The notes under the pieces: model-generated
Databases searched by the model: none
The model's input: only the letters and a program-made list of their open reading frames with translations
What the model was told of the DNA's origin: nothing
Shown here: in pieces, positions 17,238-24,777 of the stretch
Layout: each line of letters begins with the position of its first letter
How positions within the stretch are numbered: the first letter of the stretch is position 1
Origin: a virus
Taxonomy: Duplodnaviria; Heunggongvirae; Uroviricota; Caudoviricetes
Direction: 5' to 3' (one strand)
Length of the DNA: 24,777 nucleotides
IMG/VR virus record: IMGVR_UViG_2778261216_000008
Span: 1 to 24,777 of that record
Translations under genes and position numbers: made by a program

Positions 17238-17307
17238 TTTATTAGACACGTTTAAATACACTACCTAAAGCGATACAATCTAGGTATCAGTTTTGAGGTG
17301 GTAAACA

Positions 17308-18831
17308 ATGAAACGTGTCATTTCATACATTCGTTTCTCATCAGAGAAGCAAGCTAAAGGCGACTCACTCCGCAGACAATCTAAGATGGTCACTGATTGG
17401 CTTAAGGCTCATCCTGAGTACTACCTTGACCAAGATTTATCTTTTCGTGATTTGGGGGTGAGTGGGTTCACTGGTAAGCACTTGAAAGGTGGCTTAGGTG
17501 ACTTCTTAACCGCTATCGAGAAAGGGCTTGTTAAAGCTGGTGATACATTATTAATCGAGAGTTTAGACCGTTTGTCACGTCAAGACATAGATATTGCTTC
17601 GGAGCTATTAAGAAACATCCTGCGTTCTGGTGTAGATGTGGTCACCCTGTCCGATGGTGAACATTACACAAGGGAATCTCTTAGAGACCCGCTAGCTCTG
17701 ATTAAAAGCATTTTGATAATGCAGCGGTCGCATGAAGAGAGTCTGCGTAAATCTGAACGTATACAAGCTGCATGGGATGCAAAGAAAGAAGCTGCTAAAG
17801 CTGGTATCAAAGTTTCTAAACGTTGTCCTGCATGGTTAAGGCTGAATGATGACCGTAAAAGCTTCTCTGTGATACCTGATAAAGTGGAGACTGTGAAGAG
17901 GTGCTTTCAGCTACGGTTAGAGGGTAAGTCTATCTGGGAGATTGTCAGAACTCTTAATGCTGAAGTTCATCGGTCGATGAACCAATACAAGCCGGGTAAG
18001 TTTGGTCAAACATCTGTTCAAGACCTTTTGAAGAATCGCTCTGTAATTGGATACTTTACCCCGAAAGGCTGTGAAGAGATTGCAGGTTATTACCCGTCTG
18101 TAATTGATGAGACAACATTCTACAAAGTCCAGCAACTATCACATTCTCGTTACGGTCGAAAACCTGTTTCAGCTAAACCATTGAGTGTGAATCTCTTTAA
18201 AGGTGTTATCCGTTGTTCTGAATGTGGTCATGCTCTGATTATCACAGGCTTTAGCGATACAAGAAACGGGATTTATCGTTGTCCTCTTCGTAATGAAAAC
18301 CGTTGTAGTGCTAAAGGGCTGTCACGTAAGCAAACCGATGGTACATTGCTTACCCTGCTATCTCGTCTTGACCGATTTGATAGCGATATGACGAATACCA
18401 TAGACACACTGAAGCTACACCGTGAACACATCTCAAGCAATATTGAGAAGCTGGTACAGCTATCACTTGAAATTGAAGACCTGAACGCTATTACCAACAA
18501 GCTAAAACAACTAAAGAATGAGTTATCACAGGTTGATGCTGATATCGAGAAGGAGACACAGCGGCTTAAGTCTATCGATACAGGCTCTTTGTCCGATTGT
18601 GACTTGAGTACAAAGGCGGGAAGGATTGAAGCACAACTGATAATCAAAAGTGCTGTTAAAGAGGTCGTTTTAAATACTGCTAAACGTCGCTGTAAAGTGA
18701 CTTTTCACAATGGTAAGGTAATTGACTTACCTATAACAGAAGACCCCTCAGAGAATGTTACAGAGGCTATACAGTCGCTTTCTGAAGTCACTGAGAGGGG
18801 TTTAATAGATGTTGATGAGGTTATCATATAG
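17308..18831 (+). CDS. large serine recombinase (phage-type serine integrase)
   Basis: 507 aa after RBS GAGGTGG; resolvase-type catalytic domain with Ser in YIRFSSEKQ, recombinase domain, Cys cluster CSECGH...CP...C, C-terminal coiled coil. Confidence 0.9.
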   Translation: MKRVISYIRFSSEKQAKGDSLRRQSKMVTDWLKAHPEYYLDQDLSFRDLGVSGFTGKHLKGGLGDFLTAIEKGLVKAGDTLLIESLDRLSRQDIDIASELLRNILRSGVDVVTLSDGEHYTRESLRDPLALIKSILIMQRSHEESLRKSERIQAAWDAKKEAAKAGIKVSKRCPAWLRLNDDRKSFSVIPDKVETVKRCFQLRLEGKSIWEIVRTLNAEVHRSMNQYKPGKFGQTSVQDLLKNRSVIGYFTPKGCEEIAGYYPSVIDETTFYKVQQLSHSRYGRKPVSAKPLSVNLFKGVIRCSECGHALIITGFSDTRNGIYRCPLRNENRCSAKGLSRKQTDGTLLTLLSRLDRFDSDMTNTIDTLKLHREHISSNIEKLVQLSLEIEDLNAITNKLKQLKNELSQVDADIEKETQRLKSIDTGSLSDCDLSTKAGRIEAQLIIKSAVKEVVLNTAKRRCKVTFHNGKVIDLPITEDPSENVTEAIQSLSEVTERGLIDVDEVII

Positions 18832-18845
18832 TTGAGCTTCTATCG

Positions 18846-19613
18846 TCAGTAGCGCTTGTTAGGATTAACAGAAAACTTCCGTAGAGCATTACCCGACTTG
18901 AGTACCTTTGCAGCACCTGAATTAGCTGAGTCTGTGAAGGTGCTTACACCATCTTTCACCGTGACATTTTTAGAGCAATTACTACGGGCTTTTAATGCTT
19001 CATCAGATAGCTCAGATGCTGAGTAACTGTACAGTTCCTGACACATCAGCATAGGTGCGTTATTGCGTTCAGTAGTCACGTTACCCGCATTCTTCTTAGA
19101 GGTTGTGCCTCCATCATTTGTGGTAGCGGTTTTTCCTGTCGCAGCCGAAATATCAGTCTGACCCACAATGGCTTTGAAGTTAATTTCCTGAAAAGTTAAC
19201 TGGATTCTTAGACCATTTGAAATACCAACATCTTTAGAGGCTTTAAAACTCGTAATAATGGAATCGTCAATTTTGATACCGTCTCGACAGATGACAGAAA
19301 TAATTTGTTTCTGGTCACGCCAGCTTTCTAGAGTGTCGATGAAGTTTTCCACCAGCTTAGTATCTCTTGAGATAAGGATACTACCGGATTCACCAACCAC
19401 AACGACACCACTAATAGTGATTGTTCTGGGTGCTCTTTGAACATTATCTGTGACGGTTTGCCCTGATTGCATATTTTGAGTGGTAACCATCATAGGGCTA
19501 TCAAATTCCATGTTTTCAGTTGCTGATAGTGACAAGAAATTATCTGGTTGGCCTTGTAGATGAAAGTAAACGCCATCTTTGCCAGTGTAACGAAGCTGAT
19601 TAGTGTAAATCAT
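18846..19613 (-). CDS. hypothetical protein (255 aa), possibly tail-associated
   Basis: ATG 19613 after RBS AAGGAG; Thr/Ser/Gly-rich; lies directly downstream of the tape-measure-like gene; function inferred from position only. Confidence 0.5.
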
Positions 19614-19689
19614 TAAATTCTCCTTTGATTTCAAAGACTTAGTATATTTTAATCATTTTTAGCTAAGCCTTTGATATATAAGTATTTTC

Positions 19690-19770
19690 TCTGTTAAGCG
19701 TGAGCTACGTAAAAACTAATTTTTAGTGGGTATATCTGTTCAGGAGATTTCACGTAGCATTCGGCTATTA
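19690..19770 (-). repeat. conserved ~80-bp upstream module, copy A (before the 255-aa gene)
   Basis: Roughly three-quarters identical by eye to 21905-21985; contains GCTACGTGAAATCT, TACCCAC, an A-rich block and TTTACGTAGC. Confidence 0.5.
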
Positions 19771-23022: not shown

Positions 23023-23576
23023 TGTTTCATTTCCTCTAAGTGTGTGGTTATTTCTTAATAGAGCACCTTCAACGCCAATACACTTAGAAGATGACTTAAC
23101 GATTTATTAAAGATGCTCTATTAAGAAAAGCCCTAAACGTTTCTGTGAAGGGCTTTGAAGGCTTGCTTTATAACGTTAACGAAGTTTCAGGAAAAACTTT
23201 CTTTAAAAGCTCTGTTTAAAAACTCTTAAAGAAAGCCCTAATCATGAGTTAGGGCAAAGCTGTAAGGGTTCAATAATGAATGATTAAGCACTTTTTGAGA
23301 TGACCTCTCAGACTAAACTGAAAGGTCATGACGAAAAGCATTGCACCTTTCCAACTCAGAATATAGTTATCATCGATGTAGAGACGATTAATATTTTAAT
23401 TCAAGGAGAATTGCTCTCCCTATAGACTTCGGATAGAAGACTATCCTCATATATACAATTATGTCATGCTCAAGGTTATTTGTCAACAGCTTTTTAACAG
23501 ATTGGTAACATTTATACTTTAATAGATGCACCTGCAATCATACCAATCAATACAAAACAGATAATCACCAATTCCA

Positions 23577-23900
23577 TTAATGCACCACCTTCGAATCCGT
23601 CACCAAAATATTGTCAGCGTACAAAATTGCTATAGCTGCCTTGAGATATCTTTCAGGGCTAATGCTGTATTTGTTCGTTTGCTCGATAACCAATCTTTTC
23701 ATGTTGCTGTCTTTAATTGGTAGCATCATTCGAGGCTCGTTAAACTCCACCGACTGAATAAAATCTTCAATTGTTTCTGAGTTATCAGCCATTAGCCTTA
23801 ACAGCCTGTCAAAGTCAATTGATACACCGGAATCAGTGAAGCTTTGCACCATCATAGCGGTGTCGTTATCAACGAAAATTTGCATTGGGTGATTGTTCAT
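23577..23900 (-). CDS. hypothetical protein (107 aa)
   Basis: ATG after RBS AAGGAG; no domain recognised. Confidence 0.5.
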   Translation of the reverse strand: MNNHPMQIFVDNDTAMMVQSFTDSGVSIDFDRLLRLMADNSETIEDFIQSVEFNEPRMMLPIKDSNMKRLVIEQTNKYSISPERYLKAAIAILYADNILVTDSKVVH

Positions 23901-24250
23901 TTCTTAAAATCTCCTTTTTACCAGACCTCCTCAATCGCTCTGTAACGAGCTAAACAGTCTTTTTCAGGGGTAGCCTGTAGGGGTGTACCACATACCCTAA
24001 AATAAGATAGTTTTTTGCGTTAGAATGCGATTGAGAGCGTCTGAGAGTGGGTAAAACCGTTTTTTGCCTTTAGTCTGAGACTATTAACCCCATCTCACTA
24101 TGAAATTGGCTAAACCAGCTTTTTGTTACTGAGGTTTTTAACGTGAAAGATGGGGATTGCATAATCAGATAGATGTCATCATTATCAATGTCACCCCATC
24201 CATTATGTACATCAATTAGATTTCAAAAATATTTGAAGGCTTTGTCTGTT

Positions 24251-24538
24251 TTAAGTTTGAGGGTGAATACTTTCTTCATTCTTCCCCCAATTCTTAATGA
24301 GTTCATAAGCCCGCTTAAATTGAGTCGGGTCACTATAATCAAGCTCGATACCCAGTGACTTTAATTCATAGCGTAACTGCTCAATTTGATGTGGCTTTAG
24401 TCTTTTCTTGTTACGGTCAAGCGTAACATCTTCATATTCTTTTGAGCGGGTATCTTGTCTGATTAGATGTGATGCCAGTTTATAAAATTTGTACCTAGGT
24501 AGCATTAAATCTCCAGTAGTAAATTGTTTGGGTGGCAA
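24251..24538 (-). CDS. hypothetical protein (95 aa or shorter); overlaps the next ORF out of frame
   Basis: ORF only; 34-nt overlap with 24505..24777 in another frame, so start uncertain. Confidence 0.35.
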   Translation of the reverse strand: MPPKQFTTGDLMLPRYKFYKLASHLIRQDTRSKEYEDVTLDRNKKRLKPHQIEQLRYELKSLGIELDYSDPTQFKRAYELIKNWGKNEESIHPQT

Positions 24539-24777
24539 TTTCTTTTATTACCATCCCTGAAGATAATTTTTTTAGTTGCCTGAACTTCATGATGCAAAAA
24601 CCAGATGACATATTTCACATAATAATCACGAGTGCCATAACGAATCATTGGATTACCGTAAGCGTCATCTCTTGTCTTAACCTCTCCACCATCAATCCAT
24701 TCAAGCATTCCTGTTTCGTAATTAATCATGAAGTAAGTTGCAAAGAACCGTTTAATATCATCTCGCCATTGCTTCAT
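24505..24777 (-). CDS. hypothetical protein at the window edge, weak HNH-endonuclease-like C-terminal motif
   Basis: ATG is the last three bases of the window, so the true start may lie outside; ...HHEVQATKKIIFRDGNKRNCHPNNLLLEI loosely recalls an HNH motif. Confidence 0.35.
   Translation of the reverse strand: MKQWRDDIKRFFATYFMINYETGMLEWIDGGEVKTRDDAYGNPMIRYGTRDYYVKYVIWFLHHEVQATKKIIFRDGNKRNCHPNNLLLEI

Follow-up and report, generated by a model that had tools for sequence, protein, structure and literature searches.

What kind of genetic element carries a large serine recombinase (LSR) and the gene for a phage tape measure protein (TMP), and little else that is recognizably viral? The question is raised by the right part of a 24,777-nucleotide stretch of DNA (positions 1 to 24,777 of the IMG/VR virus record IMGVR_UViG_2778261216_000008, Caudoviricetes; the whole stretch is called the window below). 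An earlier reading of the bare sequence (the original prediction) had marked out an element starting at position 17238, with an LSR, a 255-amino-acid (aa) protein and a 707-aa tape-measure-like protein on the opposite strand, and several unrecognized genes, and had offered three options for it: a degraded prophage, a satellite-like element or an unfamiliar phage type. The second of these is favored by our analysis. We regard it as probable that the element, an island of 11,376 bp inserted in the gene yecE, is a satellite that uses virulent Felix O1-like myoviruses (Ounavirinae) as its helpers, and hence a candidate for a new enterobacterial satellite family. A broader joint reading would have it represent a widespread, previously undescribed satellite family, with members in about 9% of complete E. 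coli genomes (O157:H7 and ST410-like clinical lineages among them) as well as in Salmonella and Shigella, that forms chimeric tails, is packaged by mimicry of a phage genome end and confers lineage-specific resistance to virulent Felix O1-like phages; to this combination of claims we give an even chance.

The island in yecE and its two tail genes

The rightward extension proposed along with the original prediction was made with a public E. coli contig (GCA_002460265.1, NJVD01000047.1; locus L011) that encodes exactly the same TMP. Window positions 9771-24777 are 100% identical over 15,007 nucleotides (nt) to the reverse complement of this contig, which adds 6.6 kb on the right; coordinates in the extended sequence, marked ext, equal 31393 minus the L011 coordinate. 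Comparison by blastn and of the junctions with yecE of E. coli K-12 MG1655 places the island at 17240-28615 (ext), with window positions 17240-24777 making up its left two thirds. A middle fragment of yecE ends at 17239, and the originally predicted start was in this respect essentially the true left junction; from ext 28616 onward yecE resumes, from its nt 473 to its end. The overlap of the two yecE fragments yields a 7-nt att core, TGATTTT, common to attL (17233-17239) and attR (ext 28616-28622), and sets the insertion site at yecE nt 473-479. In the reconstructed attP this core is surrounded by an imperfect inverted repeat (GTGTATTTA...TAAATACAC), as is expected of an LSR site. A guess that the island corresponds to SpLE2 of O157 Sakai went unconfirmed and was dropped, one paper placing SpLE2 near sbcB.

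Searches with Pfam, PHROG and NCBIfam profiles recovered no capsid, portal, terminase, sheath, tube, fibre or lysis gene anywhere in the element, and the TMP and the neighboring 255-aa protein, a tail tube initiator (TI), are the only structural genes recognized in it (Table 1). The LSR, with three recombinase-type domains, the 255-aa protein on the opposite strand and the TMP all hold up in these searches, the last as a genuine TMP, albeit of the myovirus type. The further unrecognized genes also proved to be such, namely five small open reading frames (ORFs) at 22078-24777 on the minus strand with only a weak HNH match between them. As for the genes thought to be missing, those for fibres, lysis and tail chaperones are indeed not recognizable, even beyond the window, but a distal tail gene is present after all in the form of the 255-aa Dit-like protein. 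Of a standard contiguous siphovirus tail module (tail tube, G/GT chaperones, TMP, Dit, Tal and fibres) only the TMP and the Dit-like TI were found among the ORFs. The idea of an unfamiliar phage type gains no support from an element of only 11.4 kb without capsid, terminase, lysis or fibre genes. Rather, the island presents itself in the manner of phage satellites, as a small integrated element (the range for these is about 7-20 kb) equipped with integrase and att sites, here the LSR and the TGATTTT core, and with no autonomous set of virion and lysis genes. The comparison of GC content that had been suggested with the lambdoid prophage in the window gave 39.5% for the island as against 47-48% for that prophage and 50.5% for the host flank. 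The GC content of the island is phage-like, the values for Felixounavirus being 38.7-39% (in part from PMC3185647).

The only part of the region that matches phage DNA, among 50,697 phage records, is a segment of about 450 nt within the TI gene, which is 83-91% identical to some 200 Felixounavirus-type (Ounavirinae) records of virulent phages with E. coli, Shigella and Salmonella as hosts. The island TI has 71% aa identity to gp22 of phage momo, being nearly identical over residues ~13-185 and diverged in an island-specific C-terminal part of ~75 aa. In sliding windows the nucleotide identity of the N-terminal domain to phage reaches 87-100% for the window island and 90-100% for two other islands, and drops abruptly to 40-55% on both flanks of the domain. 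Such a mosaic with sharp breakpoints indicates that the TI segment has recently recombined with the DNA of virulent phages. In momo, gp22 lies directly after the TMP gene gp23, which is also the order in the island; and a cryo-EM study of phage Bas63 identifies the product of the gene following that for the TMP as a tube-initiator hexamer, with a tube-like fold and a C-terminal extension of ~100 aa that runs through the baseplate (PMC12609058). The island thus pairs its two tail genes just as the Felixounavirus tail module does (Bas63 gp17 for the TMP and gp18 for the TI), side by side and in this order, with a TI N-terminal domain ~90% identical. However, in the phages these genes are set within a full 88-kb virulent genome, between the chaperones and the genes for spacer, hub and wedges, whereas the island pair stands alone beside a recombinase. 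Alignment and gene order together identify the 255-aa protein as a TI of the Felixounavirus type.

The TMP is likewise identified by its alignments as belonging to the myovirus (Felixounavirus) type, its best phage relatives being Felixounavirus TMPs with 26-37% identity. Against the TMP of momo (736 aa, which makes the island protein 29 aa shorter) the identity is 30% over residues 178-707 and 54% over residues 1-50, and the C-terminal decapeptide is identical; the pattern D-x-LLSSSYPEEE at the C-terminal end is invariant in four islands and the phage. In Bas63 the last 25 residues of the TMP touch the hub and the puncture apparatus (PMC12609058). The conservation of the TMP ends and of the TI N-terminal domain would mean that the parts expected to dock on the phage tail have been kept, while the ~70% diverged TMP body and the TI extension are island-specific. 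In the related island of E. coli strain MS1718 the N-terminal ~50 residues of the TMP (22946-25078 of locus L001) are nearer to the phage TMP than to the TMP of the window island, which suggests a second patch of recombination with phage DNA at the 5' end of the TMP gene.

These alignments also bear on whether the tail genes could be roleless passenger cargo on a generic integrative island that captured phage DNA by chance. Phage DNA does get copied into the island, as the sharp breakpoints in the TI gene attest. Nevertheless, both genes are intact and conserved across islands, with ratios of nonsynonymous to synonymous substitution (dN/dS) of 0.19-0.26 (0.26 for the TMP) at dS values of 0.3-0.8; the TMP, at only ~30% identity to the phage proteins, is marked out as an ancient gene that has been maintained, not one captured lately; and a second phage-like element, a non-coding one described below, has been kept as well. 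We accordingly give chance capture hardly any credence.

A copy of a phage genome end and a free form of the island

A sensitive DNA search of 2.3 Gb with the right part of a related island returned 52 matches (E down to 8e-12), all of Ounavirinae type by their listed names and hosts. They fall in the large non-coding region of these phages, where many phage records start. In phage Pr103Blw, direct terminal repeats (DTRs) of 581 bp have been set by PhageTerm and are annotated in the record (PMC8303462). The corresponding segment of the present island, at ext 27369-27487, is non-coding. Over 121 nt it shares 75% identity with phage Moogle, and the DTR boundary falls within it, ~65 nt lying outside the repeat and ~55 nt inside. 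It includes a 24-mer, GATTCGGTAGAATCTACCTCATGA, with a small hairpin, of which exact copies occur only in islands, in Moogle, in BPS17W1 and in six contigs of IMG/VR (five of them phage-sized, 87-94 kb). By its position and its likeness to the phage terminus, the 121-nt segment would be the kind of cis element at which a helper terminase cuts and packages DNA, and the terminus of the packaged island DNA would be predicted near ext 27423, ~14 nt after the GATTCGGTAGAATC hairpin.

Several smaller repeats were seen in the same part of the island. An 11-mer, AGTTGATTCGG, followed each time by a short hairpin and CCTCAT(A/G), has three copies in the island and none in the rest of the 31 kb examined, its hairpin stem being kept via shifted pairings (GATTC/GAATC versus ATTCG/CGAAT). 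The same motif is found at the terminus of Moogle, and a variant of it lies within an annotated Moogle terminator (around position 2431 of locus L007). In the 2-kb non-coding region of the island a 13-nt unit, CCTTCTTAACCGA (on the other strand GGTTAAGAAGG), is repeated in tandem three times at ext ~26397-26437 (L011 4956-4999); these repeats are similar to those of the TGTTAAGA type filling the terminal region of the phage and could be iterons or binding sites.

A 30-mer across the reconstructed attP junction was found once in the metagenome collection, on a contig of 11,473 bp (L024). This contig represents a related island (86-90% identity) in circularly permuted form, without yecE flanks, and it carries the genes for the LSR, the TI, the TMP and the 236-aa protein described below in their usual order. 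As the 30-mer is impossible in the integrated state, the assembled contig demonstrates that a free form with the attP junction, circular or concatemeric, exists in nature. At its start (positions 1-120) L024 has four copies of an iteron-like palindromic repeat resembling GTGACATTTTGTCAC, and at its end (11431-11473) it runs into a Nextera adaptor, CTGTCTCTTATACACATCTGACGCTGCCGACGA; the break may stem from the repeats, or from a pile-up of read ends at a single position.

Relatives of the island are present in 490 of 5,426 complete E. coli genomes (~9%), always on the chromosome, with up to three in a genome and mostly at 80-90% identity. The copy in strain MS1718 is 11.5 kb long and that in O157:H7 Vac_07.1 is 13.4 kb, with an IS1203 within the TMP gene (11547-14938 of locus L005); both are inserted in yecE. 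In strain S40 the same gene order adjoins wrbA, and while the window LSR is 94% identical to that of the MS1718 island it is only 34% identical to the LSR of this wrbA-type island. A scan of genome contigs, which depends on exact peptide seeds, returned two loci only. Homologs of a 185-aa protein encoded in the right part of the island extend the range to Shigella, E. albertii, E. fergusonii and Salmonella enterica, and the matching phages, with hosts in E. coli, Shigella and Salmonella, overlap the island in host range. Many clinical strains have the TMP or the LSR annotated twice next to an insertion sequence (IS2, IS100 or ISEc12), and in some lineages the TMP gene has been inactivated more than once. 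Between the window island and that of MS1718 all eight genes compared have dN/dS values of 0.13-0.35, at dS values of 0.06-2.8, and by this measure are under purifying selection.

This distribution is relevant to the degraded prophage of the original prediction, which in its most specific form would be the cryptic remnant of a temperate phage related to Felix O1 that has kept its integrase, TMP, TI and a few early genes. Such an origin would accord with two genuine tail genes lying beside an integrase, with the insertion sequences in the TMP or LSR genes of several lineages, and with the position of the island next to another prophage in a known prophage hotspot. It is hard to reconcile with the compact content of ~11.4-13.4 kb that recurs in the same order in unrelated strains, with two different recombinases and at two loci, or with purifying selection on all the compared genes, against which the insertions appear secondary. 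No phage shares the other genes: the seven other conserved island proteins, searched by tblastn as a concatenated query, had no match in the 50,697 phage records. Moreover, no temperate member of the Ounavirinae figures among the matches, and an excised form of unit length exists. A remnant of this kind is in our view very improbable.

Other genes of the island and its neighborhood

The remaining features are listed with the principal ones in Table 1.

Table 1. Positions and matches of features of the island and its left border (window coordinates unless marked ext)
Feature	Coordinates	Strand	Description
yecE middle fragment (attL at right end)	16838..17239	+	nt 78-479 of K-12 yecE; blastn against MG1655 yecE 98.3% over 402 nt; DUF72 1.6e-34
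LSR, island integrase	17308..18831	+	507 aa; Resolvase 1.7e-20, Recombinase 2.8e-13, Zn_ribbon_recom 4.8e-07; phrog_95 integrase 2.1e-77
Tail tube initiator (TI; Dit-like baseplate protein)	18846..19613	-	255 aa (ATG) or 262 aa (TTG at 19634); PF21821 6.3e-19; phrog_3721 4e-122
Tape measure protein (TMP)	19771..21894	-	707 aa; PF20155 1.2e-17; TIGR02675; phrog_4036 3e-77
69-aa protein	22078..22287	-	directly upstream of TMP; no Pfam, PHROG, NCBIfam or PADLOC match
236-aa conserved island protein	22312..23022	-	predicted fold: long antiparallel coiled coil with small alpha/beta insert
Sigma-70-like promoter, consensus match only	23458..23486 (L011 7907-7935)	-	TTGACA-17-CATAAT, 11/12, TG extended
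107-aa conserved island protein	23577..23900	-	no family matches; 79% identity in MS1718; dN/dS 0.35
84-aa protein (95 aa from upstream TTG at 24538)	24251..24505	-	called 84 aa on public contig; no family matches
HNH endonuclease-like protein	24505..24777	-	90 aa; HNH_3 4.4e-05 (23.5 bits, cut-off 24.8); phrog_959 HNH 4.7e-05
AGTTGATTCGG motif, copy 1	ext 25789 (L011 5594-5604)	-	
AGTTGATTCGG motif, copy 2	ext 27382 (L011 4001-4011)	+	
AGTTGATTCGG motif, copy 3	ext 28565 (L011 2818-2828)	+	

The 69-aa protein, which is 45% identical between two islands, sits where a phage would have a tail assembly chaperone, and it gave no alignment to momo gp24; nor was any similarity found when it and the 236-aa protein were compared with momo gp24 and gp25. 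The 236-aa protein belongs to a family of about five diverged full-length clusters among 1.84 billion representatives, and its predicted model has structural matches to coiled coils only. In hundreds of genomes it bears the RefSeq/PGAP label 'transposase', for which neither Pfam, NCBIfam and PHROG nor the fold gives support. Upstream of the genes for the 236-aa protein, the 69-aa protein, the TMP and the TI is a gap of 554 nt that contains the promoter match; in a consensus scan, promoter-like sites in the island overall were not enriched relative to shuffled sequences. The 107-aa protein had no match among PDB sequences, and the 84-aa protein is 97% identical to its MS1718 homolog. The HNH-like ORF is complete, its start being the last base of the window; its counterpart in MS1718, with 96% identity, carries the annotation HNH endonuclease. 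Scanning the island with PADLOC, NCBIfam and Rfam proved uninformative, the PADLOC matches being weak or spurious (LmuB at 3.5e-05 on the LSR coiled coil and CARF at 3.6e-04 on the invertase).

Past the window the island encodes 92-aa and 185-aa proteins on the minus strand, a 62-aa ORF on the plus strand and a 189-aa small serine recombinase, and includes ~2 kb of non-coding DNA. The 185-aa protein, the first of its operon, gave a shallow alignment and a pLDDT of 42, with no usable fold model. The small recombinase, of the resolvase/invertase type (ext 27671-28240, plus strand; L011 3153-3722), lies in a variable right end, where other islands have an AP2-HNH endonuclease, a DNA methylase fragment or a 306-aa hypothetical protein; this end looks like a cargo hotspot. 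We make no claim of an invertible segment around the small recombinase, the inverted repeat there being only a ~40-nt hairpin motif.

To the left, the island stands in tandem with a lambdoid prophage in the same gene. The prophage occupies positions 1-16837 of the window, with a tyrosine integrase at 15512-16798, and abuts the yecE fragment at 16838, a junction at yecE nt 77/78. With the island inserted at nt 473-479, yecE is split into three pieces, the first of which (nt 1-77) must be located past the prophage on its left side. The visible part of the prophage is its early region, with a DnaB-like helicase, a DnaC-like loader, Rha, Ash and Bro proteins and DUF968. At its edge (327-1932, plus strand) are two overlapping genes for 357-aa and 179-aa proteins of ~40% GC and without a Pfam or PADLOC match, which could be prophage cargo.

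Comparison with known satellites and proposed mode of action

The PLEs of Vibrio cholerae, the nearest functional precedent for the island, are ~18 kb in size and their integrase is reportedly a large serine recombinase. They are satellites of the virulent myovirus ICP1 and encode an alternative TMP, tail chaperone and baseplate hub that give rise to chimeric tails, and PLE11 in addition blocks the TMP of the phage itself with Rta (PMC12987554). The yecE island is likewise a small chromosomal island integrated by an LSR, with a virulent contractile-tailed phage as its putative partner. It has its own TMP and baseplate-core protein, of low to moderate identity to those of the phage, and it has nuclease genes and no capsid or terminase genes of its own. 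It differs from the PLEs in its hosts, which are Escherichia, Shigella and Salmonella rather than Vibrio, in its smaller size of 11.4 kb, and in its second tail gene, which is for a tube initiator and not a hub, with no chaperone found. Furthermore, its presumed helper packages by direct terminal repeats, and it carries a copy of that boundary. In terms of the homology by which the PLE family is recognized (RepA, TcaP and CapR among others), the non-tail genes of the island match no annotated family, the comparison with PLEs being one of descriptions only. By analogy, the island would resemble PLEs in the way it works, which need not imply common descent.

Two other kinds of satellite offer partial parallels. 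The PICMI (phage-inducible chromosomal minimalist islands) of Vibrionaceae are believed to use tyrosine integrases and are not known to carry tail genes; the island differs from them in having an LSR and two tail genes. They are described as minimal satellites of virulent phages that have no capsid-remodelling genes and are packaged as concatemers (PMC10803314), a mode of packaging that the island would share. The EPIPs of Mycolicibacterium combine a serine integrase with a satellite-encoded TMP that has been proposed to alter helper-derived tails (PMC12822802), and in these two respects they resemble the island. However, EPIPs have in addition genes for a small terminase, for head-tail adaptors, and for scaffold and capsid proteins, and they parasitise a temperate siphovirus prophage (PMC12822802); the island has none of these terminase, adaptor, scaffold or capsid genes. 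Profile scans of the island ORFs for the traits of PICIs, cf-PICIs and P4-like satellites found no tyrosine integrase, AlpA/Stl regulator, primase-replicase, terS/Ppi/Cpm, capsid, or Sid/Psu/Delta domains. Our literature search found no paper that links satellites to Felix O1-like phages and none that describes such an island.

From the genes and sites set out above we infer a course of events that includes induction, replication, packaging, transfer, the formation of chimeric tails and the protection of the host population. The island resides in yecE between attL and attR, and infection by a felixounavirus would trigger its excision, to the free form for which the attP junction is evidence, and its replication. 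It would then express its own TMP and TI. The docking parts that have been kept are the TMP N-terminus, the hub-binding tip at the TMP C-terminus and the tube-like domain of the TI, whereas the middle of the TMP and the C-terminal extension of the TI are different, from which it would follow that the island proteins replace those of the phage. The resulting tails would be chimeric, with the TMP and TI of the island and the hub, tube, sheath, wedges and fibres of the phage; they would be expected to fall short of phage tails by about one tube disc, the 29 aa missing from the TMP corresponding at 1.5 A each to about 44 A and the rise per disc being 38 A. The non-coding copy of the DTR boundary might let the phage terminase cut and package island DNA, probably as concatemers since no capsid-resizing gene was recognized; with no small capsids formed, multimers of about 7 x 11.4 kb would be predicted. 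Phage assembly would in this way be diverted or spoiled and the bacterial population protected.

As the main rival, a different use of the same two tail proteins can be envisaged, in which the island is a defence island that poisons tails and is not mobilised by phage at all: the TMP and TI would be dominant-negative decoys that dock on the hub and tube, yielding dead tails, progeny unable to infect and clonal protection, and the recombinase would serve only occasional horizontal transfer by other routes. Consistent with this, the island proteins keep their phage-interacting parts and diverge elsewhere, and they vary rapidly between islands (79% identity for the TI, 86% for the TMP and 45% for the 69-aa protein). 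Tail assembly is also a known target of defence, Rta of PLE11 being an example (PMC12987554), and no replication or packaging proteins were recognized in the island. Yet tail poisoning leaves unexplained the non-coding copy of the DTR boundary, the phage-like GC content of the whole island and the free form of unit length with an attP junction, and no PADLOC family was matched. We consider it unlikely as a full account; and as known satellites combine interference with their own spread, it would be more a sub-function of a satellite than a true alternative to one.

A number of observations weigh against the satellite interpretation. The contig that carries the attP junction is unclosed, at 6x coverage, and it could derive from a circular intermediate unrelated to phage infection. 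The island is in none of the 50,697 phage records and on no contig of the viral-particle type; its relatives in IMG/VR amount to six contigs, which we take, from names and sizes alone, to be prophage predictions from isolate genomes. The mimic of the phage terminus is short (121 nt, 75% identity) and covers one DTR boundary only, its best-conserved hairpin block is absent from Pr103Blw, and a promoter or a protein-binding site that island and phage have in common would be another reading of it. Among the island proteins no replication initiator, regulator, small terminase or capsid-remodelling gene was recognized, nor, unlike in PLEs, a tail assembly chaperone. Finally, the TMP or the LSR has been broken by IS elements in many lineages, which implies that the island is not always maintained.

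Satellites of virulent phages are known mainly from Vibrio, in the form of PLEs and PICMI, and it was only in 2025-26 that tape measures encoded by satellites, and chimeric tails, were demonstrated (PMC12987554). If our interpretation is true, the hijacking of tails would be a general satellite strategy, with a counterpart in E. coli and Salmonella that is aimed at Felix O1-like phages, and a role would be found for an island whose genes are now labelled 'tape measure protein', 'phage baseplate protein' and 'transposase' by genome pipelines. It would also provide a tractable model in E. coli, with the BASEL and Felix O1 phages at hand, and would explain strain-specific resistance to a group of phages that is used in the typing of Salmonella and E. 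coli, in biocontrol and in therapy. The near-identical TI segment, for its part, documents directly at the sequence level that a chromosomal island and virulent phages continue to exchange genes.

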